A stretch of DNA of 48,579 bases from an uncultured Eubacteriales bacterium (lineage in GTDB: Bacteria > Bacillota > Clostridia > Christensenellales > CAG-314): positions 1 to 48,579 of the forward strand of contig CASEME010000017.1 of assembly GCA_949289125.1 (NCBI GenBank), written 5' to 3'. Each line of letters opens with the position of its first letter. Position 1 is the stretch's first letter. The position numbers were made by a program, and so were the translations under genes. The notes beneath the pieces were generated by a model. It saw only the letters and a list, made by a program, of their open reading frames with translations, made no database searches and was not told the DNA's origin. This document shows, piece by piece, positions 5,614 to 32,687 of this stretch.

Positions 5614-7989
5614 CTATACGGCTTTTTCTACTGCTTTGCGTATTTCTGATGCGTTGCAGAACTTTTGCATTGTGTTGCCGTTGACTATCACCAACGTGGG
5701 TGCTTGCAGTATGCCAAATTGCTTTGCAATGTCAGGTTGTTTGTCAGCAACAATCTCTTCGTACTTGATGCCTGCTTGCTTGAGTATTGTCTTTGCCGTG
5801 CGGCAATTGGGGCAAGTGGAAGTGGTAAACAGCAATGTGCGTTGTTGCGTATTGTCACAAGCTGTTTTGTCGCGCTGTTTGTTGTCGGCAACAGCCTTGT
5901 TCTTTTGATGTTTCAACTTGGAGTGCGCAATATCATACGTCTTTCTGTCCTCAAACTCCTGCAACTTGCCGTCGTTCCAGTTTTGTACAGGACGGTAGTA
6001 ACCGGTAATACGGCTGTACACTTCTGTCTTTTGTCCGCACTTGGGGCAAGTGTAGTGTTCGCCTGTGATATATCCGTGGTCCTTACATACCGAATATGTG
6101 GGCGACATCGTGTAGTAGGGCAGTTTGTAGTTTTCTGCAATTTTGCGTACCAACGATGCAGCAGCCTTCCAATCGGGCAACTTTTCACCCAAGAAAGCGT
6201 GGAACACAGTACCGCTTGTGTACAATGTCTGCAATTCGTCTTGTATATCCAATGCGTCAAATATGTCCGAAGTAAAGGATACGGGCAAATGACTGCTGTT
6301 GGTGTAGTAAGGTGTGCCGTTCATGTTGGCAGTGATGATATCGGGGTAACGTTGTTTGTCGTGCTTAGCAAGACGGTATGTTGTAGATTCTGCCGGTGTT
6401 GCCTCGAGGTTGTACAAGTCGCCATACTGTTCCTGATAGTCGGACAGTCTTTCGCGCATGTGATTGAGCACTTGTTGTACAAACTTTTGTGTTTCGGGGT
6501 GGGTAAGGTCTTTTCTAAGCCACTTTGCGTTGAGTCCTGCTTCGTTCATACCCACAAGACCAATGGTGGAGAAGTGGTTGTTGAATGTGCCAAGATAACG
6601 CTTTGTGTAAGGATACAGACCTTCGTCCAACAACTTGCTAATAACCGTACGTTTTACTTTCAAAGAGCGAGCCGATACGTCCATCATTCTGTCCAAACGG
6701 TTGTAAAAGTCTTTTTCGTCCTTTGCAAGATATGCTATACGGGGCATATTGATTGTAACAACGCCTACAGAACCTGTGCTTTCGCCGCTTCCGAAGAAGC
6801 CACCCGACTTTTTGCGCAGTTCTCTCAGGTCAAGACGCAATCTGCAGCACATACTTCTTACGTCGCTCGGTTGCATATCGCTGTTTATATAGTTGGAGAA
6901 GTACGGTGTGCCGTATTTTGCAGTCATTTCAAACAACAGTTTGTTGTTTTCTGTTTCCGACCAGTCAAAGTCACGAGTGATAGAGTATGTGGGGATAGGA
7001 TATTGGAAACCTCTGCCGTTAGCGTCGCCTTCTATCATAGTTTCAATAAAGGCTTTGTTGACCATATCCATTTCTTTTTTGCAGTCTTTGTACTTAAAGT
7101 CCATCTCTTTGCCGCCCACTATACAGTTGAGCTCTGCAAGGTCGTTGGGTACTGTCCAGTCAAGTGTAATGTTGGAGAACGGTGCTTGTGTACCCCAACG
7201 GCTGGGAGTATTGACGCCATAGATAAAGGACTCAATGCAACGCTTAACTTCGGTGTAAGAAAGGTTGTCTGCTTTTACAAAGGGTGCAAGGTAGGTGTCA
7301 AACGAACTGAACGCCTGTGCGCCTGCCCACTCGTTTTGCATAATACCAAGGAAGTTGACCATCTGGTTGCACAGACTTGCAAGGTGCTTAGCAGGTTTGG
7401 AAGTAATTTTGCCTGTAACGCCGCCCAAACCTTCTTTTATCAGTTGCTTTAGTGACCAACCAGCGCAGTAGCCTGTAAGCATAGAAAGGTCGTGCAAGTG
7501 AATATCTGCGTTTCTGTGTGCGTCAGCTATTTCTTTGTCGTATATTTCGCTAAGCCAATAGTTGGCTGTTATTGCGCCGCTGTTGTTGAGTATCAGTCCG
7601 CCTACAGAGTAGGTAACAGTGGAGTTTTCTTTTACACGCCAGTCGGTTACTTTTACATAGCTGTTGACCAACTCTTTGTAGTCCAATATGGTGGACTTCA
7701 TATTACGTATCTTTTCTCTGTTTTTGCGGTAAAGGATATAGGACTTGGCAACGTCTGCATAGCCTGCTTCGCTCAAAACGGCTTCCACACTGTCTTGTAT
7801 ATCTTCTACAGAAATAGCATTGTCCTTTATTTTGTTTTCAAAGTCCGCCGTCACTCTCAGCGCAAGCATATCAATAACAGAGGGGTGATATTGCTTGTGT
7901 TCTGCCTCAAATGCTTTTGTAATGGCAGTGGAAATCTTTTTGATGTCAAATTCGGCTTTCGCGCCGTCGCGTTTGATTACTTGATACAT
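5614..7989 (-). CDS. nrdD: Anaerobic ribonucleoside-triphosphate reductase (class III RNR) with a C-terminal glutaredoxin/NrdH-like CPxC domain fused on
   Basis: N-terminal ATP-cone, C-terminal Zn-ribbon CPKCG followed by glycyl-radical motif RITGYYRP, then about 100 extra aa containing TCPNC. Confidence 0.9.
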   Translation of the reverse strand: MYQVIKRDGAKAEFDIKKISTAITKAFEAEHKQYHPSVIDMLALRVTADFENKIKDNAISVEDIQDSVEAVLSEAGYADVAKSYILYRKNREKIRNMKSTILDYKELVNSYVKVTDWRVKENSTVTYSVGGLILNNSGAITANYWLSEIYDKEIADAHRNADIHLHDLSMLTGYCAGWSLKQLIKEGLGGVTGKITSKPAKHLASLCNQMVNFLGIMQNEWAGAQAFSSFDTYLAPFVKADNLSYTEVKRCIESFIYGVNTPSRWGTQAPFSNITLDWTVPNDLAELNCIVGGKEMDFKYKDCKKEMDMVNKAFIETMIEGDANGRGFQYPIPTYSITRDFDWSETENNKLLFEMTAKYGTPYFSNYINSDMQPSDVRSMCCRLRLDLRELRKKSGGFFGSGESTGSVGVVTINMPRIAYLAKDEKDFYNRLDRMMDVSARSLKVKRTVISKLLDEGLYPYTKRYLGTFNNHFSTIGLVGMNEAGLNAKWLRKDLTHPETQKFVQQVLNHMRERLSDYQEQYGDLYNLEATPAESTTYRLAKHDKQRYPDIITANMNGTPYYTNSSHLPVSFTSDIFDALDIQDELQTLYTSGTVFHAFLGEKLPDWKAAASLVRKIAENYKLPYYTMSPTYSVCKDHGYITGEHYTCPKCGQKTEVYSRITGYYRPVQNWNDGKLQEFEDRKTYDIAHSKLKHQKNKAVADNKQRDKTACDNTQQRTLLFTTSTCPNCRTAKTILKQAGIKYEEIVADKQPDIAKQFGILQAPTLVIVNGNTMQKFCNASEIRKAVEKAV

Positions 7990-9222: not shown

Positions 9223-12200
9223 TTATGCTTTGATGTATTTGCCGCTTGCCGTACGCAACAACGCATTGTGCGTAACGCCATATTCCATAGCGGTAGTTAG
9301 TGCAGTGGTCAGTGCAGGGCTGGTCTTTGCAAAGCCCAACTTTTGCAACGTTTCTTTGATAAGGTCTGTTGCCGTCATAGATATACCTTCGTCCAATACA
9401 CTTCGCATAGCGGCTACCGCTTCATAAGGCGGTATGTCTTGCGGTTCTACTTTCATAACAGTCATTTTGCGGTAACTGTCGCAGTTAAGACATTCGTCTG
9501 TTGCACGCAAAAACTCTTTGCCGTCTATCGTTTCCCGTTTGACAGGCAGTTTTTGTAGCAGTGTGTTCATACGTGCGTTTATCTTGGGGGTGGAACGCAT
9601 AACGCCATACGAGTTGAGCGTACGTTGCAACAAGAAGTTGCCCGACATCGGTTCTTCTTTTTCTACAATGGCAGTCATACGTTGAAGTATTGCCTTTTCG
9701 TTTGCTGCGTCGGTCAACCAATCGTTGTGCACGTTTTCTGCACGAATGTTGGCGGTAGTGTAACTGCGCAGATACTTATCCTGCGTTTTGGATTTTGCAG
9801 TGTCTGTAGTGGGCGCGGTCAACTTGTTGATATAGTCTTTTATGCGACGTATCTCACGTTTGGGGTTGTGATAGAAGTTCAATGTCCACACACGCATTAC
9901 GTTCCAATTAAGCCGTTTCAACGTTTGAGCTTGCAACAGATACTTGTCGCGTGCAGACCTGTCTGTAGAGCCGTCTGCCAATACTGCCAACGCATAACGC
10001 TTTTTGTTGCGTGGATCGACCACTGCTACGTCAATGCGGAATCCCGATACACCGAGGTCGTATCGACACTCAAAGCCCTGTTTGCGCAGTTCTTTGGCTA
10101 TGTACTTGCCAATGCCTGCTTTGTGCATAGCAATGTCGTTGGAGTTCAATGCAAGCATAGTGCGTCCGCTTGTTGCAAATTCCAAAAACTTCTTAAGGCC
10201 TATTACGCCCTTGCTGTTGGTGCGTGACATATCTATCATAGCAGAGGTCATACAAGAGAATACTATCATTTCTTCTCTTGCACGCGTTACTGCAACATTT
10301 AGACGCCTCCAGCCTGCGCTCTGGTTGAGCGGTCCGAAGTTTAGCAAAAGGTTGCCGTGGCTGTCCGGTCCATAACCTACCGAAAACAGTATAACGTCAC
10401 GTTCGTCACCCTGTACGTTTTCCAAGTTTTTGACAAACAACGGTTCGGGGCGGTCGTAAGCTACATTTTCCAACTTGTATTTTACCAACATAGCATTGAG
10501 CTGGCTTTCCACAGCGTCTTGTTGTGCGGTACTAAATGTTACTATACCAATAGACTGATTGCACGTAGCTTTGTCGGTTAGGCGCTTGCGCACTTCTTCC
10601 ACCAATGCTTCGGCTTCCTTTTTGTTCTGTTTGGTATTGCCTCTGTCGTATGTAGCGTCGGGCAGGTATCGCATAGTAACCTTGCTTTCCATAGCGTCGG
10701 GCGATGGGAAGGTAAACAGGTTGTTGCCATAGTACATAAGGTTGGAAAAGGCAATAAGACTTTCGTGCTTGGAGCGATAGTGCCACAACAAGTGCTTTTC
10801 TGTCATACCAAGTGCCATACAGTCGTCCAACACGCTTTCAAGGTCCTCAAGGTCGAGGTGTTCTTCGTCCACGTAGTCACTGCTAAAGAAGGACGTAGGC
10901 GGCAACTGCTTGGGATCGCCCACAACAACTACGGCTTTGCCGCGTGCTATTGCGCCTATTGCTTCGGCTGTAGGCAACTGCGACGCTTCGTCAAATACAA
11001 CAAGGTCAAATCTATTGGCTTGCGGTGCAATGTATTGAGCAACCGATATAGGGCTCATAAGCATACAGGGTGCAACGAGTGAAAGCAAGTGCGGTATGTC
11101 GTCAAACAACTTGCGCAAGGTGTAACTGTGTGCCATACTCTTTGCCGTTTTTTGCAATGCTACAATTTCTAATGACAACTTACCCTCTGTGTCGAGGTCG
11201 GGCAGACGTGCAATCAGTCTTGCGCGTATTTCCTCTCTCGTCACTCTTTGCAGTTCTTCGTTTATCTGACGGAAGCGCTCTATTTTGTCTTCCAACTGTG
11301 CGCTGTTAAACTCTCTTAGTACTTCGTCTTCCTTGCTTATTGTATCTATATAATAGGCATATATCTTCTTGCGGAAGCAAGACAGCAGTGTATCGCTGTT
11401 AAGTTTGCCCGAAAGCAACGGTTCAACGGCAAAGGATAGTCCCATGTCGGACAATTTTTGCTGTGAGCTGTAAAAACTGCACCAATTTGCCAACAGGTCG
11501 GAGTTTTCGTTCAAAGCAGTGCACTTTGCAGTAAGAAAGTCGAGGTAGTCCTCGTCCAACACCGAATAGTCGCCCATAATGTTGAATTTGTCAAAAAAGG
11601 CGTTGACTGCGTCTTGCATCTGCTCGTATGCCTGCAAAAATCTGCGTGCCGTCACAATGTTGTCGTTGCGGTAAAAGTCTGCGCATGCCTGATTGAACAG
11701 TTGACTGTCATATTCGGCAAATATATCTGTACCAACATCGTACAGCTGTTCCATACGTTGTACAAAAGTATTGAGCTTGTCTTGCGAACGGCGATTGAAT
11801 TTTAACGCAGTTGCAAGTTGCTGAGCAATATCTTCGGTCTGTTGTTGCAACTCGTGCACAGTAAGTGCGGTGTTGGTAAGTTTTATCAGTTGTTTTTCGT
11901 CTATGCTGTGCAGGCAATAGCGTTGTATACGCTTAGCAAAAGCGGCACATTTGGACTTGCCGTTGACGCCCGTGTTGTCTAACTCGTTGCGCAACTGCTG
12001 TAGCTTTGCTGTAGGTTCGGGCAAAACTCTGCAGTGAGAGGAGTACTCGTTGAGCAGTGTTTCACGCTTGCTACGTAGCTCCGAATACTTGTTGATAAGG
12101 TCTGCCGTTTGTCTGTCGGCATTGCTGAATACATTGTAATAGTACTCGTTTTCATTGCACAAAGTCTGTGTCAACGTGTACAACGAGTGCAGTTTGTTTT

Positions 12201-14889
12201 TTGTAAGTGTACGCACTTTGTGACGATATACGGGCAAAAGCAATGCTATGTATTGCTTAAGGTGGCGTATCTGCTCGCACACAATGTCGCAGTGCGTGCG
12301 TAGCGCCATATCCAGCCCTTCGGTGTAGTTGCCGTTGAGCATATCGTTGAAAGGTGAGCTGTGCACTTCGCCACACTGACGTGCGTATGCGGCAAGCTCT
12401 GTCAACGCATTTTCGTACTCGTCAAGCATCTCTGCTGTCAAACCGTCGCAAAATGTACTGTCTATATCCATCACATCGGGTGCGGATATGTTTTGCTCGT
12501 ATTGCAGTACCGCCTGATACAGCGATATGCCAAGATAGTGAGGCGTGTGCAATGCGTCTGTTATTTGCGTAAGACTTTTGCGCACTGCCTGATATTTGTC
12601 GGCTACTGCGTTGAAGTCTGTATCTGCTTTGTACTTGTTGAGTGCAAGCGTATTGAGCAGTCTGTCGGTAACATCGGCTTTGTCTGCCTTGTTGGAGTGC
12701 AATTCTATGCAAAACTCACCTATGCCGATATTGTCCAAACGTTGCTTAACTACCGACAAAGCTGCCATTTTTTCGGCAACAAACAGTACTTTTTTGCCAC
12801 GAGCTACCGCATTGGCAATGAGGTTGGTTATAGTTTGCGATTTGCCTGTTCCCGGTGGACCGTGCAATACAAAGCTCTGCCCTGCGCCTGCAGATACAAT
12901 GGCGTCCAACTGCGAAGCGTCCGCCACTATGGGCAAAAATACGTCTTTGGTGTTGATATCTGCCGTTTTGGCACTTTTTTGCGGCAACAGTTCGGGTTGC
13001 AGTCTGTTGTTGATAAGCGATTTGACAAGTGCATTTTGTGCAAAGTCGTCTATGTGGTATCGTATGTCGCTCCACATAAGATAGCGAGTGAAGCTGAAGT
13101 TCGCCAAGTGCATATCTTCCACAACGTCCCAACCGTGCATACTTACTATTTTGCTACGTACCGACGCCAAAATGTTGTCAATATTCAGCTGTTCACTGTC
13201 CAAGTTGTCCAAACCGCGCAGTTCGATGTTGAATTCCTGTTTCAAAAATTCAAACAAGGTAGTGTTAATTTGCAATTCGTCTGCGCGCACGTCAAGCGAA
13301 TAGCCCTTTCCACCTTCTTTTTTGACCAAAGTGACGGGTATCAATGTGAGCGGTGCGTATTTGGGGAAAAGGCTGTCTTCGCGCTCGTACCATTTGAGAA
13401 AGCCGCCTGCAAGATACAGCGTATCTACACCCATCTCTTCCAAAGCGGTGCGTTCGCGTCTGTACAATGTGTTGAGTGTGGCTTTGAGCTTTGTTTTGTC
13501 CACAAAGGTGCGCAGACGTTTGTTTTTGAGCTCTATTGTGTTGAGTTCTGCCACGCCCTTAAGACTTGCTTTGGTGTCAAAGTTGCGTGCTTTGGCTATT
13601 ACGCCTCCTATGTCGGGAGGGGTGTCGTTGACAGAAAAAGTCTTTTTCTCAAACAGGTATTTTACCGTCTCCGCCAAGTCGCATACCAATATGTGTAGTG
13701 AGCTTACAGACGGACGGAAGTGCAACAGCATATTTTTGAGCGAGAGGTCGAGCAAACGTCTTTCCCATTGTTTTTGTCTGCTAACTGCCGTTTGCGTGGA
13801 CAAAACTTTGCCCTTGCTTAGCAGTTGCGGTGCGCTCTCTACGTCGGTGTCCGATTCGTAAAACAGTTGCGCGCCGTCCTCGCCTACTATTCTTTCGGGC
13901 AAAGGTTTGACGCCACCTGCTCTACAGCGTTTGATGTCTACGCAGTACTCAAAGGCTTGTCCTTTGGCAAGTGCTTGCGAATATGCTTTTTCTGCGCCCG
14001 TATAGTTGAGATTGGCGTCAAAAATGCACTGTGCGTCAAACAAAGTGATGTCGTTGACGCCGTCGCTTGCAAGTTTGCGTACAAGTTCTCTGTCGTTTAC
14101 ATAGCTGTCCGTCATACAGTTGTCGTACAGCCACAAGCCTGCATGCGCGTTGTTTTTGTCTATTATTACTATAGGGTTGAGCCCGCAACTTTCGGCTACC
14201 GAGCAGTACAACAGACAGGCTTCGAGCATAGTAGCACTGCGTGTACGCAGTATGTCACCGTAACTGCGTATGGTACTTGCCTTGCTGTTTTCTTTTTCCT
14301 CTATCTTTTTTAGTTTGAGTGCCTGCAAGGCGGTATATATTGCTGCGGCTATACTGCGCACACTGTTTTTTGTGCTGTCGGCATATCCGCTGAATTGTAC
14401 AGGCATCTTCCAATCTCTAAGTATGTTTTGTACGTCGTTTTTCAGTCTTGCAACTTCTGGGTGACGTGGGCGTACAAAGCCTGCCAACAAGTCCACATAT
14501 TCTCCCTCGGGATTCCAACAGTCAAAGGGGAGCAGAGTTACGCTACAGTCTTTTTGACAGTGTTTCTTTTTGTCTGTGGATATTGTTACGCTAACGGTAG
14601 CTTTTTGGTTGGCATTTACGTTTTGCAAATAGTAGGGTGACAGCGTAACGCCTGTAGTGTCTATCTCTACAGTGCTGTCTGCCGGCAGTTGTTCTATTGT
14701 TTTTACAAAAGGCAGCAAAAATTCGGGCTGACTTTCTATAGTTACGGTTACGCCGTCAATAGGTTCGATGGAGTTGTTTTTTACATACAATCGTTGCACA
14801 AAAGGCACATTGCTTTTGCAATACGCATAGTTGACAGCTTTGCGTACGGCAAGTTCCATTTCCAATACAGATTTTGTGGTTTGCGCCAT
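9223..14889 (-). CDS. 1888-aa multidomain protein: N-terminal DUF4011 / transglutaminase-like (Cys...His...Asp) region, SF1 Upf1-like helicase (AAA_11/AAA_12), Vsr/DUF559-like PD-(D/E)xK endonuclease domain, C-terminal DUF3320
   Basis: Helicase motifs: Walker A GPPGTGKS, Walker B DEASQ, motif QLPP, motif WHYRS, arginine finger VAVTRAR. N-terminal TGase-like CLLYCSVAESCGLNP...HAGLWLYD. Start set at MAQTTK (AAGGAGA RBS) rather than the ORF-track start 15051. Confidence 0.8.
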   Translation of the reverse strand: MAQTTKSVLEMELAVRKAVNYAYCKSNVPFVQRLYVKNNSIEPIDGVTVTIESQPEFLLPFVKTIEQLPADSTVEIDTTGVTLSPYYLQNVNANQKATVSVTISTDKKKHCQKDCSVTLLPFDCWNPEGEYVDLLAGFVRPRHPEVARLKNDVQNILRDWKMPVQFSGYADSTKNSVRSIAAAIYTALQALKLKKIEEKENSKASTIRSYGDILRTRSATMLEACLLYCSVAESCGLNPIVIIDKNNAHAGLWLYDNCMTDSYVNDRELVRKLASDGVNDITLFDAQCIFDANLNYTGAEKAYSQALAKGQAFEYCVDIKRCRAGGVKPLPERIVGEDGAQLFYESDTDVESAPQLLSKGKVLSTQTAVSRQKQWERRLLDLSLKNMLLHFRPSVSSLHILVCDLAETVKYLFEKKTFSVNDTPPDIGGVIAKARNFDTKASLKGVAELNTIELKNKRLRTFVDKTKLKATLNTLYRRERTALEEMGVDTLYLAGGFLKWYEREDSLFPKYAPLTLIPVTLVKKEGGKGYSLDVRADELQINTTLFEFLKQEFNIELRGLDNLDSEQLNIDNILASVRSKIVSMHGWDVVEDMHLANFSFTRYLMWSDIRYHIDDFAQNALVKSLINNRLQPELLPQKSAKTADINTKDVFLPIVADASQLDAIVSAGAGQSFVLHGPPGTGKSQTITNLIANAVARGKKVLFVAEKMAALSVVKQRLDNIGIGEFCIELHSNKADKADVTDRLLNTLALNKYKADTDFNAVADKYQAVRKSLTQITDALHTPHYLGISLYQAVLQYEQNISAPDVMDIDSTFCDGLTAEMLDEYENALTELAAYARQCGEVHSSPFNDMLNGNYTEGLDMALRTHCDIVCEQIRHLKQYIALLLPVYRHKVRTLTKNKLHSLYTLTQTLCNENEYYYNVFSNADRQTADLINKYSELRSKRETLLNEYSSHCRVLPEPTAKLQQLRNELDNTGVNGKSKCAAFAKRIQRYCLHSIDEKQLIKLTNTALTVHELQQQTEDIAQQLATALKFNRRSQDKLNTFVQRMEQLYDVGTDIFAEYDSQLFNQACADFYRNDNIVTARRFLQAYEQMQDAVNAFFDKFNIMGDYSVLDEDYLDFLTAKCTALNENSDLLANWCSFYSSQQKLSDMGLSFAVEPLLSGKLNSDTLLSCFRKKIYAYYIDTISKEDEVLREFNSAQLEDKIERFRQINEELQRVTREEIRARLIARLPDLDTEGKLSLEIVALQKTAKSMAHSYTLRKLFDDIPHLLSLVAPCMLMSPISVAQYIAPQANRFDLVVFDEASQLPTAEAIGAIARGKAVVVVGDPKQLPPTSFFSSDYVDEEHLDLEDLESVLDDCMALGMTEKHLLWHYRSKHESLIAFSNLMYYGNNLFTFPSPDAMESKVTMRYLPDATYDRGNTKQNKKEAEALVEEVRKRLTDKATCNQSIGIVTFSTAQQDAVESQLNAMLVKYKLENVAYDRPEPLFVKNLENVQGDERDVILFSVGYGPDSHGNLLLNFGPLNQSAGWRRLNVAVTRAREEMIVFSCMTSAMIDMSRTNSKGVIGLKKFLEFATSGRTMLALNSNDIAMHKAGIGKYIAKELRKQGFECRYDLGVSGFRIDVAVVDPRNKKRYALAVLADGSTDRSARDKYLLQAQTLKRLNWNVMRVWTLNFYHNPKREIRRIKDYINKLTAPTTDTAKSKTQDKYLRSYTTANIRAENVHNDWLTDAANEKAILQRMTAIVEKEEPMSGNFLLQRTLNSYGVMRSTPKINARMNTLLQKLPVKRETIDGKEFLRATDECLNCDSYRKMTVMKVEPQDIPPYEAVAAMRSVLDEGISMTATDLIKETLQKLGFAKTSPALTTALTTAMEYGVTHNALLRTASGKYIKA

Positions 14890-15199
14890 ATTTTTATCTC
14901 CTTTGCATACAACGGCAGGCAGTGATATTTTTGTATGCCTTGTGCCGTTGCACATCAATATATACCTTACCACACTTTTGCTTTGTTGTCCATACGTGAC
15001 AGCCAACAACATAATTTCTACAACAGACTTTTTTGTGTACCAAACGGTCAAATTGTCAAAAATACGTGAAAAATGTATTGAGAAAGGGATTTTTTTACAA
15101 TTAGTTATTTTACTTTCCTTTTTTGCGCATATGTGGTATAATTACACCAACTTTTGTAAACTTCAACACCTATTGAGATTTACGTTAAGGGAGGTTTTT

Positions 15200-27421: not shown

Positions 27422-29443
27422 ATGGCAAATTTAAGTTTGAGACACATTTATAAAGTATATCCCAACGGAGTCAAGGCTGTTAATGACTTCAATATGGATA
27501 TTGAGGACAAAGAATTTATTGTATTTGTAGGACCTTCCGGTTGCGGCAAATCTACCACTTTGCGTATGATTGCCGGTTTGGAAGATATATCAGCAGGCGA
27601 GTTGCGTATAGGCGATGTGGTGGTCAATGACGTAGAGCCTAAGGACAGAGATATAGCAATGGTGTTCCAAAACTATGCGCTTTATCCTCATATGTCCGTC
27701 TACGAAAACATCGCATTTGGTTTGCGCATACGCAAGATGCCCAACGAAGAAATACACAAGCGTGTAACTGAAGCCGCAGAAATACTCGGTATTACCGAAT
27801 ATTTGGACAGAAAACCCAAAGAAATGTCCGGTGGTCAGCGTCAGCGTGTATCTTTGGGACGTGCAATAGTGCGTGAACCCAAAGTAATGCTTTTGGACGA
27901 ACCTTTGAGTAACTTGGACGCAAAATTGCGTACACAGATGCGTGCAGAGATATCCAAACTGCACAAAAAGTTGCAAACAACGTTTATTTACGTTACCCAC
28001 GACCAAGTAGAAGCTATGACAATGGGTACTCGTATCGTTGTTATGAAGAACGGTTTTGTTCAACAGATTGACACACCGCAAAACTTGTATCGTTACCCCG
28101 GCAACAAATTCGTGGCAGGCTTTATAGGCACTCCTCAGATGAACTTCTTTGAAGGTACTCTTACCAAGAACGGCAACAAAGTGGACATCAAATTTGAGTA
28201 CAGCGACGCTATGATAACTGTTCCGTACGAAAAGTTGCTAAAAGCACGTCCGCATTATCTTGACGGCAATCATCCTGTTTACATAGGTTTGCGTGCAGAA
28301 GACGCAAGTTTGGATCCCGAAGTTGTAGCAAACAGCAAATACAAAGTAAAAGTTGTTATTTCTCACATAGAAGAGTTGGGCAACGAATCTTTGGTATATG
28401 CAGACATCAATATGCACGGCGACGGTTACACCGAAAGCTCCACACGTATCATTATCAAATCGCAGACAGCCAACCAATACACCCCTGGCGAAGTGTATGA
28501 CTGTGCACTCGATGTAGATCATCTTCACTTGTTTGACAAAGAGACCGAAGAGTCCATTATACCTCGTATCCCCGAAGTCAACGAGATAGAGTGCAAAGTA
28601 AAAGACGGCAAATTGGCATTCCTCAACAGTCTGTTGCAACTTCCGTCTGCAATCACCTGCCCCGAGGGCAAAGGCACAATGTTGTTGCCTACCAATGCTA
28701 TCGTATTTGGCGGCAGAGCAACTGCCAACGCAGTAGAGTGCGAAGAAATCGGTGGCAAATATCTTGTATCGTTGGACGTAGCAGGCAGGAGATTGTTTGC
28801 AGTGTCTGAGAAACCTGTCAAATTGGGCGAATGCAACATCAGCATAGATATGAAACGTATCTCGTTGCACATAGAAGATACTGTTGTTGAAGCTATGAAC
28901 GAGAAAGTTGCTTTCAATGGTACCTTTGACAAACAGAAAGTAGTAGAAGACGTTGCTATTTTCAAAAAACCCAAAAAAGACAAAAAACAAGCAGAGGAAG
29001 TTGTTGCAGAGCAAGCTACCGACGAACAACCTGTTGCAGAGCAGGTTGAGCAACCGTTGGAAGAGAGTGAACAACCCGAAGTTGTTAAATACAAAAAACG
29101 CAAGGTTATTCATTTCTATCTCAACATTGCAGGCACACGCTTTGACGCTCCCGATGACATAGCGCAAAAGATATTTGCAACATTGCCTCCGCGTACAGTA
29201 TTCTCCACACCTTTCCGTTATGAGTTTACTCCTTATGACTTCACATTGGCAGACAGCGGTATACCTGCTAAGGTGGAAAGAGTGCTTGACTATGGCAATG
29301 AGAAATTTGCTGTAGTACGCATAGACGAAAACACGGTTATCAATGTTTTTGTTAAAGACAATGTTTGGGGAGACGTTTATCTGCAACCCGACATCTCCAA
29401 AGTAGGCGTTGTAGAGACAGTAAGAGATATCCGTCTTGCATAA
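27422..29443 (+). CDS. MalK/MsmX-type sugar ABC transporter ATPase, unusually long (673 aa) with about 300 extra C-terminal residues forming two further TOBE-like beta-domains separated by an acidic K/E-rich linker
   Basis: Walker A GPSGCGKST, Q-loop, signature LSGGQRQR, Walker B LLDEP, H-loop. Canonical TOBE ends near aa 378; the extension contains repeated beta-rich segments. Confidence 0.85.
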   Translation: MANLSLRHIYKVYPNGVKAVNDFNMDIEDKEFIVFVGPSGCGKSTTLRMIAGLEDISAGELRIGDVVVNDVEPKDRDIAMVFQNYALYPHMSVYENIAFGLRIRKMPNEEIHKRVTEAAEILGITEYLDRKPKEMSGGQRQRVSLGRAIVREPKVMLLDEPLSNLDAKLRTQMRAEISKLHKKLQTTFIYVTHDQVEAMTMGTRIVVMKNGFVQQIDTPQNLYRYPGNKFVAGFIGTPQMNFFEGTLTKNGNKVDIKFEYSDAMITVPYEKLLKARPHYLDGNHPVYIGLRAEDASLDPEVVANSKYKVKVVISHIEELGNESLVYADINMHGDGYTESSTRIIIKSQTANQYTPGEVYDCALDVDHLHLFDKETEESIIPRIPEVNEIECKVKDGKLAFLNSLLQLPSAITCPEGKGTMLLPTNAIVFGGRATANAVECEEIGGKYLVSLDVAGRRLFAVSEKPVKLGECNISIDMKRISLHIEDTVVEAMNEKVAFNGTFDKQKVVEDVAIFKKPKKDKKQAEEVVAEQATDEQPVAEQVEQPLEESEQPEVVKYKKRKVIHFYLNIAGTRFDAPDDIAQKIFATLPPRTVFSTPFRYEFTPYDFTLADSGIPAKVERVLDYGNEKFAVVRIDENTVINVFVKDNVWGDVYLQPDISKVGVVETVRDIRLA

Positions 29444-29487
29444 TCTTCAATGTAGTTTACAATCAGTCACATTATTAAAGTTTTACA

Positions 29488-29529
29488 ACACCCCTCAACC
29501 GCATGCGGTTGAGGGGTGTTGTTTGTTTT
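29488..29529 (+). terminator. Strong intrinsic terminator ending the maltodextrin operon
   Basis: cacccctcaaccgcatgcggttgaggggtg followed by a T-run. Confidence 0.85.
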
Positions 29530-29932
29530 GCAGTCAATAAATCACTGTACACAACTATATTGGAGACAATATAGCTCCAATCAAAACGGCTTGGCAGCGA
29601 TGTGTGACAGCAAGACAAGATAGTTGCAAGACAACATAGAGCAGTTGCCTTATCCGTACAGCGTGGTATTGTCGTTGCGTTACATACAATGTATGCGCTT
29701 TGAACGTATAGCACTGAAAATGGGGTATTCATATCGTAGTATTACCCGAATACATAATCGTGCGTTGCTTATGTACTCACAAAATTTTATTGTTGGCAAG
29801 TAAAGTTGTCCTAAAATGTCCTATTTACCTATGCTATAATGCTATTGTCAAAGAATATCAAAGGGGGCGACCACGACAGTAGCGGTTGTCCCTTGTTTAA
29901 TATTGACAGTATAGCAGCAAGGTGGTAAAATA

Positions 29933-30976
29933 ATGGCAGAGGATAAATACAACGGCACAACGGGTGGAAAAAATTCTAACTTTGACGAAAGCAAGCACCC
30001 AAGAGATAAAGACGGCAAGTTTACTGACAAGGGGGCGGGCAGTAGTCATTTAGTACGAGCGGTATATAAAAGTCAAGGTAAAGAGTTACCCAAAGACGCA
30101 ACAGCATTGCAAGCGTTGAAAGAGTTGGAAGAAAAGGACGTCGACCCGAGCTATGCTTACAAAAAAGCATTAGAAAATAATGTAAAAAAAGAAAAAGAGG
30201 GTAAAATTGCTATTGACACGCCCGAAGCGAAAGCGGTTTACGATAAAATATCCAAAGGCAATTACTATTCGTTAGAGGAGCTTGACAAGTTGCCTATCTT
30301 TCAAGAGATTGAAAAGGAAATAGTAAAGGCACGAGAAAGAAACGGCAAAAGACTTGGTGTCGAGAGTGGTTATACATACAAATTGGCAACACCGACAAGG
30401 GAAAAACAAAGAGCGGAGTGGGTAGAAAACTTTTTGCAAGGTAAGGGCGTTGATACTTTACCCAAAACACCATTGCAAAAAGGTTACAAAATGACAGTTG
30501 TAGTTGGTTTGCCTGCTTCTGGAAAGTCCACAACAATAGCGACACCATTGAGCGAAGAACAAGGAGCGTTCATATTCGATAGTGATGAAATGAAAAAGCT
30601 CATAGATGGTTTTGACGGTGGCAAAAATGCGGACGGTGTTCATGATGAAAGCAAAGAACTGCTTGAAAAAGCACAAGAACAATTTATTAACGGCAAAATG
30701 AAAGGTACTAATCTTGTTTACCCTATTATAGGCGACAATAGCGCAAAGACGATTAAGAAATTGCAGCCTTTCATTGACGCAGGATACAATATTGAAATCG
30801 CTTATAAAAAAGCTGAAACAACGGAAAGTATAAACAGGGTACTTGGCAGAGCAATTAAGACAGGTAGATTTATACCCAAAAATGTAGTGATGAAATATAG
30901 CAACGAAGCGATAGAAAAAGCATATAATGAAATGCTAAAACAAGGCATAAAGCGTTCAAAATATAGCGAAAAATAG
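29933..30976 (+). CDS. P-loop kinase of the zeta-toxin / AAA_33 (polynucleotide-kinase-like) superfamily with a 190-aa Lys/Gly-rich N-terminal extension
   Basis: Walker A VVVGLPASGKST, DSDE Walker-B-like, RVLGRAIKTGR. AAGGTGG RBS. An alternative TTGACA-17-TAAAAT promoter would make the transcript leaderless. Confidence 0.55.
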   Translation: MAEDKYNGTTGGKNSNFDESKHPRDKDGKFTDKGAGSSHLVRAVYKSQGKELPKDATALQALKELEEKDVDPSYAYKKALENNVKKEKEGKIAIDTPEAKAVYDKISKGNYYSLEELDKLPIFQEIEKEIVKARERNGKRLGVESGYTYKLATPTREKQRAEWVENFLQGKGVDTLPKTPLQKGYKMTVVVGLPASGKSTTIATPLSEEQGAFIFDSDEMKKLIDGFDGGKNADGVHDESKELLEKAQEQFINGKMKGTNLVYPIIGDNSAKTIKKLQPFIDAGYNIEIAYKKAETTESINRVLGRAIKTGRFIPKNVVMKYSNEAIEKAYNEMLKQGIKRSKYSEK

Positions 30977-30988
30977 GAGGAAAATTAT

Positions 30989-31231
30989 ATGACGCATTCT
31001 GAAAAGGTACTAATACATAAAGAGAAGGTTTTATCGCAACTTGCAGAATTGTGTAGAAAATACGGTATTGTTAGTAAACCGGAACATTTGCTCACAACCG
31101 GTATGTTGTTGAATTTTGATGAGGACGGAAATTTTGAACAGTATGCAATAGAAGATTTTGAAAAAGGCAAAAAGTGGGCGTTTGGTGATAAGGCAAAAGA
31201 GGAGTGCTGGGCTTCGCATTTAGGCGATTGA
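30989..31231 (+). CDS. 80-aa hypothetical protein co-transcribed with the kinase (candidate antitoxin/immunity partner)
   Basis: AGGAGG RBS 7 nt upstream. 12-nt gap after the kinase stop. Terminator immediately downstream. Confidence 0.45.
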   Translation: MTHSEKVLIHKEKVLSQLAELCRKYGIVSKPEHLLTTGMLLNFDEDGNFEQYAIEDFEKGKKWAFGDKAKEECWASHLGD

Positions 31232-31250
31232 ATTTAATAACAAAATAATG

Positions 31251-31278
31251 TAAGGCAGTTTAACAACTGCCTTTTCTT
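31251..31278 (+). terminator. Intrinsic terminator ending the kinase cassette
   Basis: aaggcagtttaacaactgcctttt. Confidence 0.8.
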
Positions 31279-31424
31279 ATACCCTTTTGTAGGGTAACAA
31301 CTTAATACAAACAACAGTAAGGACAGCCCGATTATTCGGAGCCGTCCTTTTTTAATGCAAAAATTTAACAAGGGGGTGGCGGACAATGGCACAACTCAGA
31401 AGTGGTGCGACAATAGTGTAACTA

Positions 31425-31463
31425 AAAAGATTGCCGCCTTAAACAAGGCGGCAATCAGTTTTT
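31425..31463. terminator. Bidirectional terminator downstream of the minus-strand lipoprotein gene
   Basis: gattgccgcc ttaaacaa ggcggcaatc with A-run before and T-run after. Confidence 0.8.
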
Positions 31464-31517
31464 ACGGAATTATTTTGTAAATATTTTTGATTGGTTAACA
31501 GTTGTGTTGATTGATGA

Positions 31518-32687
31518 TTAACCGATAGTCCACATTTGTGTTACTTTAAGTACAAATCTTACGTAAGTAACGCCTTCGGGAAGAGTTTTGTTATCTCCTA
31601 CAGGCGAATTGTTGCTCATCATAGATTGTTGTCTGTCGAGTTCGAGTACCAATCTGCAATCGAAGTTACGTGTGCCTGCACCCATCTTGTCACTGCTTGT
31701 AGGATTGTATTCATATACAACCAACAATGCTTTGTCTGTTGCAAGCAAGTTGTGTACTGTATCTTTTACTGTTACTGTTGCGGATACATAGTAAGCACCG
31801 TCTTTTTCGGTAATTGAGCCCATACCGTAGATAGCAGCGGTCATATTGCCTTCAGCATCCTGAGTAATCAAAGTTTTGCTGGACAAAGAGTTGCCATTCA
31901 TAGAGATGGAGTAATCTTTGCCGTCATTGGGGAATTCAGCACGTATGTACTTAGCGTTGGGAAGTGCAGCTGCTTCTTGAAGCGTTTTTGCTGTTACGCC
32001 TTCCTGAGCTTGCTTAGCCTCTACCCATGTTACAGAGTAGTAGTACTTCATAGCAAAACGCTTAGCCATATATTCGTATGTTTGATAACTACCGGCACCG
32101 GGGTAATAGTCACTGTCTGGTCCGCTTGCGCCTGTTACTACGTCAACGTCTTCGGGAGCAACTTCGCCTTCAGCCTCGTAGATAGGTGCATTGGGATCTT
32201 CATAAGCGTGTACGGATATGCCTGCAGCCTCACATTGTTTGAGGAACAAGTCTTCGCCTTGGTCTGTTGTGAAACCGCTACCGCCTTCCTGAACAGGCAA
32301 TTTGCCGTTAAGTGCATTTTGTACTGCTTCTACCATGAGGTTGGAAGATATAGTTGCGCCTGTTACCACATTTTCAAGTGTGTTGGAATTCTCGTCGTAA
32401 CTTACTTTCAATGCTTTTACTTCTTCAACTGTCTTGCCTACAAGAGTGTCTGCAAAAGCCTGCGCGCCTGCTTTGAATGTGTCTGTAAAACTTGCCGTAG
32501 AACCTGCATTGTCTGCGTCAACAATTTCTATCTTTGTCAACTTATTGTTGCTTACGGTAACCTTTACCTCTACACTTATCAAAGTGTCGTGATATGTTGT
32601 TTGTGCTTGTCCGACATAAATATAATTGTCGGAAGAATTACATGCTGCCAACAATGTGACGGTGGTAAATGCTAATGCCAACGTCAA
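31518..32687 (-). CDS. FMN-binding-domain lipoprotein (PplA-like extracellular flavoprotein candidate). The natural start appears frameshifted in a homopolymer, see findings.
   Basis: Lipobox LLAAC. FMN_bind-like region ending ENVVTGATISSNLMVEAVQNAL. ATG at 32719 with AAGGAGA RBS lies in the -1 frame. Confidence 0.6.
   Translation of the reverse strand: MTLALAFTTVTLLAACNSSDNYIYVGQAQTTYHDTLISVEVKVTVSNNKLTKIEIVDADNAGSTASFTDTFKAGAQAFADTLVGKTVEEVKALKVSYDENSNTLENVVTGATISSNLMVEAVQNALNGKLPVQEGGSGFTTDQGEDLFLKQCEAAGISVHAYEDPNAPIYEAEGEVAPEDVDVVTGASGPDSDYYPGAGSYQTYEYMAKRFAMKYYYSVTWVEAKQAQEGVTAKTLQEAAALPNAKYIRAEFPNDGKDYSISMNGNSLSSKTLITQDAEGNMTAAIYGMGSITEKDGAYYVSATVTVKDTVHNLLATDKALLVVYEYNPTSSDKMGAGTRNFDCRLVLELDRQQSMMSNNSPVGDNKTLPEGVTYVRFVLKVTQMWTIG

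Follow-up and report, generated by a model that had tools for sequence, protein, structure and literature searches.

A probable prophage remnant with a zeta-toxin-fold kinase and a dedicated small partner in an uncultured Eubacteriales bacterium

We examined a cassette of about 1.9 kb in an uncultured Eubacteriales bacterium (CAG-314; GCA_949289125.1, contig CASEME010000017.1, positions 1-48,579, forward strand), and refer to this whole stretch of 48,579 nt as the window. The cassette lies between two ordinary bacterial genes, and its only intact genes encode a zeta-toxin-fold P-loop kinase and a small partner protein. The segment from about 29.55 to 31.4 kb is very probably a prophage remnant, from a type of phage observed on 28-36-kb contigs of uncultured gut and rumen Clostridia. 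We read the pair, with a probability of roughly one half, as a phage effector kinase with a co-translated inhibitor that keeps it inactive; in the parent phage the kinase would probably have been associated with the virion, and it is now stranded in the chromosome.

Results

Phage origin of the cassette

A kinase 67% identical to the window kinase over its C-terminal three quarters (P0007) was observed on 36-kb contigs, about 1.1 kb upstream of the small terminase (TerS), large terminase (TerL) and portal genes. The upstream part of these contigs carries ERF/SSB/DnaA-like replication genes, a 139-aa regulator, the kinase and an 86-aa open reading frame (ORF) 13 nt downstream of it, followed by three small ORFs, the two terminases, the portal and a MuF-type minor capsid protein. 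The same order of regulator, kinase, partner and terminase was found in three IMG/VR loci (L005-L007), in a Christensenellaceae metagenome-assembled genome (L072) and in L162, the closest relative outside the species.

A preliminary description of this DNA, made from its letters, had placed a 400-nt ORF-free region upstream of the kinase. These 410 nt do hold an ORF (29624-29803), which matched Sigma70_r4_2 (1.2e-5) and phrog_36 (1.2e-9) and was 46% identical to C-terminal residues 88-137 of the 139-aa regulator of phage locus L001. By tblastn, 29597-29779 matched residues 78-137 of the regulator (E 1.5e-11). The homology runs upstream across an in-frame TAG, back to about 29597, and the ORF is therefore the 3' part of a 5'-truncated pseudogene. 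At the opposite edge, the segment ahead of position 31388 was 82.6% identical over 46 nt to L001 12074-12115, which abuts the TerS start (E 2e-5). This nucleotide match is only suggestive, because a TerS N-terminal remnant was not significant at the protein level.

The window therefore contains a prophage remnant, as it holds only an internal slice of a conserved phage module, collinear with an intact phage block, with truncated or pseudogenised edges and without other phage genes nearby. Deletions would have spared only the kinase and partner, the promoter region before them, the regulator's 3' end and a few pre-terminase bases. No other phage gene, integrase or tRNA was found in the window, and att-like direct repeats flanking the cassette gave short matches at chance level only. 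The cassette has a GC content of 0.35-0.40, lower than the 0.42-0.46 of its flanks and in agreement with the A/T-rich composition described earlier, and both its AT skew and its GC skew are strongly positive. The proposal of an acquired cassette also held, as synteny and homology mark it as foreign DNA from a phage genome. The preliminary description had not recognised the regulator pseudogene or the phage synteny, nor what the kinase's N-terminal motif signifies.

Same-species contigs from other samples were 100% identical across the cassette (four assemblies), with the exception of one contig described below (L004). Exact-protein look-ups of both flanking genes returned same-species contigs only, which either carried the cassette or broke at it, and a metagenome scan with the C-terminal half of the flanking MalK-like protein gave no relatives. 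The flank contigs of sample ERZ17292904 stop at window positions 29862 (L153) and 31277 (L155), bracketing the hairpin, second promoter, kinase, partner and terminator, which suggests a repeat (a related phage, perhaps) or a strain polymorphism in this sample.

Kinase motifs, fold and acceptor site

The 347-aa and 80-aa ORFs, Walker A, DSDE and RxxxR segments and N-terminal motif of the preliminary description were all recovered (Table 1). The kinase has an isoelectric point (pI) of 9.1 and matched the Pfam Zeta_toxin model over residues 182-324 (4.7e-13; 49.5 bits against a cut-off of 22.3), while its AAA_33 score (26.8 bits) fell just below the cut-off of 27. A profile search of Protein Data Bank (PDB) sequences with the kinase family missed zeta and PezT, and profile-profile comparison with a fold search was needed to find the relation. 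Hhalign then aligned the kinase family to PezT and zeta with a probability of 95% (E 4e-8), and the kinase was found to have the zeta-type phosphotransferase fold.

The Walker A segment aligns with GGQSGAGKT of PezT, and D218 of the DSDE motif shares an hhalign column with the catalytic base of PezT (D66) and zeta (D67), the role of which has been described (PMC6362051). In the Arg-rich lid, R306 was aligned by hhalign with R157 of PezT and R158 of zeta, being invariant in one family alignment and near-invariant in a second, and R302 and R312 were near-invariant. By motif similarity outside the hhalign block, R312 in GRFIPK may correspond to R170 in ARATPK of PezT; GRFIPK also resembles TGKFIPK of Pnkp1.

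The segment of zeta and PezT that binds UDP-N-acetylglucosamine (UDP-GlcNAc, UNAG) is Glu-Gly-Thr-x-Arg (GTXR with Glu100/Glu116; PMC6362051). This motif was absent from the kinase, in which P264-I-I-G-D-N, with an invariant P264, aligns with E115-G-T-L-R-T of PezT, and the equivalent of Glu99/100 (E250) was not conserved across the family. The kinase would appear to combine a complete phosphotransfer apparatus with a different acceptor site, as in AvrRxo1, Neisseria zeta_1 and Rv0366c. Several features lean towards polynucleotide kinases (PNK), including the RxxxR lid, a weak and non-significant match to Pnkp1 that was the best PDB sequence match (E 0.16), and a match to the polynucleotide kinase family phrog_505 (2.9e-6).

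The N-terminal extension had been described as 190 aa long, of which only residues 1-94 were of low confidence and low complexity. The remainder is largely a conserved helical domain (residues 95-180), with conserved residues I106, L117, P121, G146, T148, R156, R160 and F167. This pre-kinase domain accompanies the kinase core in all three clades of the family, and polyvalent and secreted relatives match from query residues of about 90-100.

Kinase family and its contexts

A word-indexed protein collection contained 83 kinase homologues, nearly all of them unnamed metagenome proteins, while the exact 347-aa product was absent from the record in an exact-protein look-up. The homologues were observed in three contexts: (i) stand-alone phage proteins of 300-350 aa with a partner; (ii) proteins of rumen and gut Clostridia with a Sec-type signal peptide, or fused to Metallophos and 5'-nucleotidase or to Big_2 and HAD domains; and (iii) domains within ORFs of 1000-3900 aa in phages and conjugative elements, together with PBECR3/5, LPD3 and NTP_transf_2. 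Those of context (iii) are the polyvalent proteins of Iyer et al. (PMC5512222), and zeta-like kinases have already been reported in polyvalent and MuF-fused proteins (PMC5512222). The kinase domain was thus observed both in polyvalent ORFs and, in its solo form, beside the terminase in intact phages. The homologues were not housekeeping enzymes, and the partner was always present in the stand-alone clade.

The phosphatase fusions of context (ii) included L073, L088 and L099 (Metallophos, 5_nucleotid_C and kinase) and L089 and L103 (Big_2, HAD and kinase). They follow the kinase-plus-phosphatase logic of end-healing enzymes, though the proteins appear to be extracellular. P0076 and P0078 were also listed in this context (phosphatase/nucleotidase fusion or Sec-type signal peptide). 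Cultured phages and plasmids gave partial matches of 27-33% identity only, to a MuF-type minor head protein of cyanophage PSS2, the one distant match among cultured phages, and to a Burkholderia plasmid ORF; phrog_16619 was also matched. The best structural match of the kinase in BFVD was a 1134-aa protein annotated as anti-CBASS Acb1.

Partner protein

Each stand-alone phage-clade kinase examined, down to 44% kinase identity, was followed 4-14 nt downstream by an ORF of 80-93 aa. In the window the two ORFs share a frame on the + strand with a gap of 12 nt, and the previously described coupling by AGGAGG was found at a site overlapping the kinase stop codon. The partner was 42% identical to the 86-aa ORF downstream of P0007, both ending in W-A-[SG]-H-L-G-D. 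The partners share a signature of Y-G-[IV]-[VT] close to the N-terminus, followed by G-D-x-x-K-E-x-x-[WF] and by Gly/Ile-Asp at the very end, and they have diverged faster than the kinases. Seven homologues were present in the word index, and a profile search of 1.84 billion representatives gave ten matches at E <= 0.001, five of them full-length in a single stretch. The partner is acidic as described earlier, though only mildly so (pI 5.5).

No match to the partner was found in Pfam, PHROGs or PADLOC, and we detected neither a relation to epsilon, PezA or Arc1/epsilon_1 nor a helix-turn-helix (HTH) or ribbon-helix-helix (RHH) domain. Among 39,118 stop-to-stop ORFs from all collected loci, including those of contexts (ii) and (iii), a hidden Markov model (HMM) of the partner had no match away from the stand-alone phage kinases, which makes the partner a companion dedicated to the kinase in its free, cytoplasmic form. 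These searches showed it to be a new protein of narrow distribution, tied strictly to the stand-alone kinases of phages.

A conserved ORF of 62-66 aa (MSKTEAQKRAQAKYDAKAKRLELKIFPSEQDILDKI...) was observed after the partner in phages (Table 1) and is not present in the window. Neither Pfam nor PHROG identified it significantly. It might act as a small omega-like regulator that binds DNA, and the three genes would then mirror zeta/epsilon/omega with the order reversed.

The pair as a unit in other loci

In a second, independent chromosomal locus (L160/L161), the kinase and partner alone matched ORFs of the nine phage-type loci compared, and the pair lies between housekeeping genes and long stretches without called genes. 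The pair adjoins a phage integrase in L159, and in L158 it is located beside WYL and PDDEXK_4 genes. The region 7001-10329 of L158/L159 contains a kinase, a partner, an HD_4 gene, a C-terminal kinase fragment, a second partner copy, a 155-aa ORF and an 81-aa ORF. The kinase fragment was 93% identical to residues 223-331, and the second partner copy was 88% identical, with the differences clustered in the middle. The 155-aa ORF carries the N-terminal tag region of the kinase at 91% nucleotide identity, with an unrelated C-terminus.

This array resembles orphan toxin-immunity cassettes. Persistence of a pair after prophage decay, C-terminal fragments arrayed with extra small genes, and a common N-terminus joined to varying C-termini are all typical traits of toxin-immunity systems. 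A small immunity ORF after the toxin is the rule in polymorphic toxin systems, and this order is statistically enriched for MuF toxins (PMC5576092). Such an arrangement would explain the "reversed" gene order noted in the preliminary description, which rightly set the pair apart from canonical epsilon/zeta modules, the partner being downstream and without epsilon similarity.

The N-terminal KHPRDxxGKF tag

The kinase N-terminus carries a motif, here called the tag, that was observed in many other phage proteins. Back-translation of the exact KHPRDxxGKF pattern (about 36 bits) gave matches in at least 120 IMG/VR stretches, where by a rough estimate few would be expected by chance. Among the matches listed, 88 ORFs displayed an extended consensus, [FW]-[DE]-E-x-K-H-P-R-D-x-x-G-K-F, usually followed by a Gly-rich linker. 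Among these listed matches the tag was located at residues 6-35 in proteins of 120-250 aa, or internally, often twice, in proteins of 500-1900 aa. A set of 61 of the tag proteins listed included members with Phage_portal_3 (14 of 61), ADP-ribosyltransferase (ART; 9), DUF2213 (5), LPD3 (4), NUDIX (4), PBECR3 (3), PBECR1 (3) and Phage_Mu_F (2) domains.

In the portal fusions the tag lies after the portal domain and before the effector, as in L196 (portal 148-532, motif 604, Top1B 648-873), while in short proteins it precedes a PBECR1 or PBECR3 nuclease domain. In the IMG/VR loci L165-L244 the tag and Gly-rich linker were located at the start of solo PBECR1/3 nucleases, or within the linkers of portal fusions that carry ART, NUDIX, Top1B or MPTase. 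The layout of the window kinase matches, with the tag at residues 18-31, a linker to residue 94 and the effector at 95-347. Other members of the kinase clade bear different N-terminal heads, e.g. MADNRIAYGLAKKYGIDTKGMSPKEVW, so the N-terminus is a module that can be swapped. The tag is covered by no Pfam model, and a literature search with the motif strings gave nothing relevant.

The same-species contig L004 has a 33-bp in-frame deletion (window 30013-30045; L004 9577/9578) that removes GKFTDKGAGSS, the rest of its cassette being identical. This loss fits a function needed in the phage and not in the chromosome. By analogy, the tag could be a capsid- or portal-docking peptide or a processing site, like the capsid-targeting sequence of phage T4, or it could mark a recombination boundary akin to the pre-toxin motifs of polymorphic toxins. 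The T4 proteins IPI-III and Alt carry a short N-terminal capsid-targeting peptide ahead of the effector, and are packaged in the head and injected. We know of no sequence similarity between the two, and unlike the T4 peptide the tag also occurs internally in portal fusions.

Upstream region

Two promoter elements (P1 and P2) separated by a hairpin with a T-rich run were observed between the regulator pseudogene and the kinase. Both had been proposed previously, and both are present, though at the positions in Table 1 and not at 29828 and 29893. In P1, TGnTAnAAT and the subsequent GnTA were invariant across five phage loci with a mean identity of 52%, and the element was also found in L158/L159 and L162. 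P1 is the most likely promoter of the cassette. Hairpins of differing sequence were located at the equivalent position in L072, L001 and L162, while a simple terminator scan gave the window hairpin no score.

In P2, ATTGA and GTG.TA..AT were invariant in the five loci. A leaderless mRNA had been proposed to start from this element. We rejected this candidate because the P2 -10 ends 2 nt before the kinase ATG and P2 overlaps the kinase Shine-Dalgarno (SD) sequence AGGTGG (29920-29925). In L005 and L162 the P2 counterpart is followed by a downstream 5' untranslated region (UTR) with its own SD. A translatable mRNA would more likely come from P1, and then through the hairpin, than from P2. Promoter-like sites were not enriched over shuffles in this region (6 against 5.6), but P1, P2 and the intervening hairpin were kept at matching positions in the five diverged phage loci. 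The arrangement (double -10 of P1, hairpin with T-run and near-consensus P2; window 29833-29931) was conserved in L001, L005, L007, L072 and L162, and is reminiscent of an attenuated or antiterminated late-promoter region.

Locus features and neighbouring genes

The isolation of the pair by terminators was observed as previously described (Table 1), with five terminator-like sites in the cassette region against 1.7 +/- 1.3 in shuffles. The left terminator contains a perfect 19+19 inverted repeat, and the right one forms the end of a convergent FMN_bind gene (31518-32687). No known RNA family came near its gathering score between 29400 and 31600.

Table 1. Positions of features in the window and of the additional small ORF in phage loci
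Feature	Position	Strand	Details
Host intrinsic terminator of malK-like ABC operon, left insert limit	29485..29522	+	17-bp stem, 10 GC pairs, T-run
Phage sigma-region-4-type (phrog_36) regulator pseudogene, 5'-truncated	29597..29803	+	in-frame TAG 29621-29623; residual ORF 29624-29803
P1, extended -10 TGCTATAAT (29833-29841) and adjoining second -10-like copy GCTATTGT	29833..29849	+	conserved in phage loci
Hairpin and T-rich run between P1 and P2, terminator- or attenuator-like	29862..29899	+	minimum free energy -18.8 kcal/mol, z -3.1
P2, TTGACA-17-(TG)gTAAAAT	29903..29931	+	11/12 consensus matches plus TG
Kinase ORF, zeta-toxin-fold P-loop kinase	29933..30976	+	347 aa
N-terminal motif NFDESKHPRDKDGKFTDKG, residues 16-34, then low-confidence linker to residue 94	29978..30034	+	
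Pre-kinase helical domain, residues 95-180	30215..30472	+	predicted local distance difference test (pLDDT) >95
Walker A VVVGLPASGKST, residues 189-200	30497..30532	+	G192, L193, P194, G197, K198, S199 invariant
DSDE, residues 216-219	30578..30589	+	D216, D218 invariant
Arg-rich lid R302-x3-R306-x5-R312 (RVLGRAIKTGR)	30836..30868	+	R306 aligned with PezT R157
Partner ribosome-binding site (RBS) AGGAGG, overlapping kinase stop codon	30975..30980	+	read from sequence
Partner ORF, helical, conserved C-terminus W-A-S-H-L-G-D-COOH	30989..31231	+	80 aa
Terminator-like hairpin closing the two-gene unit	31252..31273	+	9-bp stem and T-run
Putative remnant of the stretch ahead of the phage small-terminase gene: T-run, RBS GGGGGTGG, ATG at 31387	31344..31388	+	right edge of detectable phage DNA
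Bidirectional host terminator, right insert limit	31429..31456	both	12-bp stem, 7 GC pairs
62-66-aa ORF after partner, phage loci	L001 11254-11454; L005 ~7718-7930; L006 2797-2985; L072 9189-9377		L005 copy inside called ORF 7667-7930

The flanks contain a maltodextrin ABC operon and genes for an FMN-binding lipoprotein, YitT, CTP synthase, NrdD and amylases. The MalK-like ABC ATPase (27422-29443, + strand; 673 aa) has about 300 residues past TOBE_2 without a significant Pfam match, including an acidic low-complexity stretch. A 1941-aa protein encoded at 9223-15051 (- strand) combines DUF4011, an SF1 helicase (AAA_11/AAA_12) and a restriction-endonuclease-like MTES_1575 domain, and resembles a large helicase-nuclease of the defence type.

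Discussion

The window pair differs from each of the systems to which it was compared. Epsilon/zeta (pSM19035) and PezAT (S. pneumoniae) are type II toxin-antitoxin (TA) modules whose kinases are UDP-GlcNAc 3'-kinases, whereas the window kinase lacks GTXR and equivalents of Glu100/Glu116 and has an extra 85-aa helical pre-kinase domain and a tagged, disordered N-terminus. Its partner is downstream, is not epsilon- or PezA-like and has no HTH or RHH domain, and the module is phage-borne. Identity to the kinases of AvrRxo1-Arc1 (an NAD 3'-kinase), Neisseria zeta_1 and M. tuberculosis Rv0366c-Rv0367c (PMC6362051) was 13-17%; the partner had no Arc1 or epsilon_1 match, and delivery would be by phage instead of the type III secretion system of AvrRxo1.

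The likeness was greater to polyvalent, MuF-fused and portal-fused effectors (PMC5512222; PMC5576092), which share the same kinase-plus-pre-kinase unit, while KHPRDxxGKF is common to portal, ART, NUDIX, PBECR and MuF proteins. As with MuF toxins, a small ORF follows the window kinase. In contrast to these fusions, the window kinase is stand-alone, upstream of terS, and has a dedicated partner that the fused versions lack. A cell-wall-weakening role has been proposed for the fused versions and presumes UNAG kinase activity, for which the motif is missing in the window kinase. Compared to T4 Pnk, Pnkp1 and C. thermocellum Pnkp (AAA_33), the kinase scores below the AAA_33 gathering threshold and higher against Zeta, and neither the window nor the phage clade has a phosphatase or ligase, as a domain or as a neighbour.

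Our favoured reading is that of an effector kinase and its inhibitor, to which we give about a one in two chance. The kinase would be an ATP-dependent phosphotransferase using the zeta/PezT machinery (Lys198, Asp218, Arg306, Arg312) with a different substrate pocket. Because GTXR is missing, the likely target would be a nucleotide-type metabolite or a nucleic-acid end and not UDP-GlcNAc. The partner would bind the kinase and block its activity in the producing cell, much like an immunity protein or antitoxin, and might do so with its invariant acidic C-terminal tail; from its context, a toxin-antitoxin or immunity role of the pair is plausible. Since the tag, linker and effector are laid out as in portal- and MuF-fused polyvalent proteins, the kinase was probably a virion-associated, injected effector in the phage, and the tag in common with these proteins points, indirectly, to virion delivery. 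Retention in the chromosome could reflect harm from loss of the inhibitor, or protection by the inhibitor against related incoming kinases.

Several observations weigh against this effector reading. The kinase gene lies outside the head-assembly genes, upstream of terS, and its polynucleotide-kinase-like features would be just as fitting for an enzyme of repair or counter-defence. No known antitoxin or immunity fold resembles the partner. Small downstream ORFs followed 37.5% of tag-bearing solo effectors against 27.5% in a crude control (n=24), a difference that was not significant, and a general effector-immunity rule for tagged proteins is therefore not established. No relative with an empty site was found, so that insertion followed by decay is inferred from synteny alone.

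We consider rather unlikely a type II TA or abortive-infection module, in which stress or phage attack would free a zeta-like toxin through loss of its labile partner, and which the host would have domesticated for defence or addiction. The kinase does belong to the Zeta_toxin family, and the pair forms a tight two-gene unit with its own promoter candidates and terminator. It has been kept in two independent decayed prophages (the window and L160/L161), and in L158/L159 it lies near integrase, WYL, PDDEXK_4, AAA_13 and Peptidase_S24 genes, which is typical accessory or defence territory. However, the phage-interference system suggested in the preliminary description found no direct backing, as no PADLOC-DB 2.0 family was matched at E <= 1 by the kinase, the partner or the regulator fragment, and most relatives belong to intact phages, where they occupy the late region immediately ahead of the terminase. 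The partner also lacks a DNA-binding domain for autoregulation and similarity to epsilon or PezA, while the tag ties the kinase to portal- and MuF-fused, presumably virion-delivered effectors.

We hold it to be similarly improbable that the kinase is a non-toxin phage enzyme acting on nucleic acids or nucleotides, with the partner as an accessory, specificity or activating subunit. Roles of this kind would include healing of 5'-OH ends of cleaved tRNA or RNA, as by T4 Pnk and Pnkp1, or counter-defence phosphorylation of a nucleotide signal or NAD. The best PDB match to Pnkp1 with its aligned TGKFIPK lid would agree with such a role, but this match was not statistically significant. The RxxxR lid, the phrog_505 match, the missing GTXR motif and the Acb1-annotated BFVD match point the same way. 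Relatives fused to HAD or Metallophos/5'-nucleotidase phosphatases also favour it, whereas phage-clade loci contain no ligase or phosphatase partner, and strict co-inheritance together with fast evolution in a small protein is more usual for an inhibitor than for a cofactor. It is more doubtful still that both ORFs are merely a not-yet-degraded part of a dead prophage, neither expressed nor selected. Such a relic would agree with the pseudogenised or truncated phage sequences on either side, with the loss of the cognate regulator and with the 11 codons of the tag that L004 lacks. Yet that deletion keeps the frame and leaves the catalytic unit untouched. Both ORFs are intact and retain all family-invariant residues, their RBSs, the conserved promoter elements of sigma-70 type and a terminator; contigs of four assemblies carry an identical cassette, and the same pair persists in the independent remnant L160/L161.

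More tentatively, KHPRDxxGKF may be a general, hitherto undescribed address or demarcation tag of interchangeable phage-delivered effectors, with the kinase and partner as a new effector-immunity pair that has a non-UNAG substrate and whose immunity gene is retained against related phages. The cassettes would then comprise zeta-fold kinase, PBECR RNases, ARTs, NUDIX and Top1B, fused to portal or MuF proteins or solo, and the tag would correspond to the T4 capsid-targeting sequence, or else to pre-toxin motifs such as VENN and DPxGL. We consider this wider idea less likely than not.

New here is that a zeta-type kinase is combined both with a novel partner encoded downstream and with a phage effector tag, the widespread tag being the most novel element. 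Zeta-fold kinases are annotated in many phages, and because the UNAG motif is missing, the usual assumption of a wall-weakening UNAG kinase does not fit the stand-alone clade. With its strictly co-inherited partner the stand-alone kinase is tractable, since two small genes suffice for toxicity, inhibition and substrate tests. For annotation, an isolated "toxin-antitoxin-like" cassette among housekeeping genes can be the last surviving slice of a prophage. If the tag does direct proteins to virions or mark swappable cassettes, it would provide a sequence handle for finding injected phage effectors in metagenomes and for phage cargo loading.

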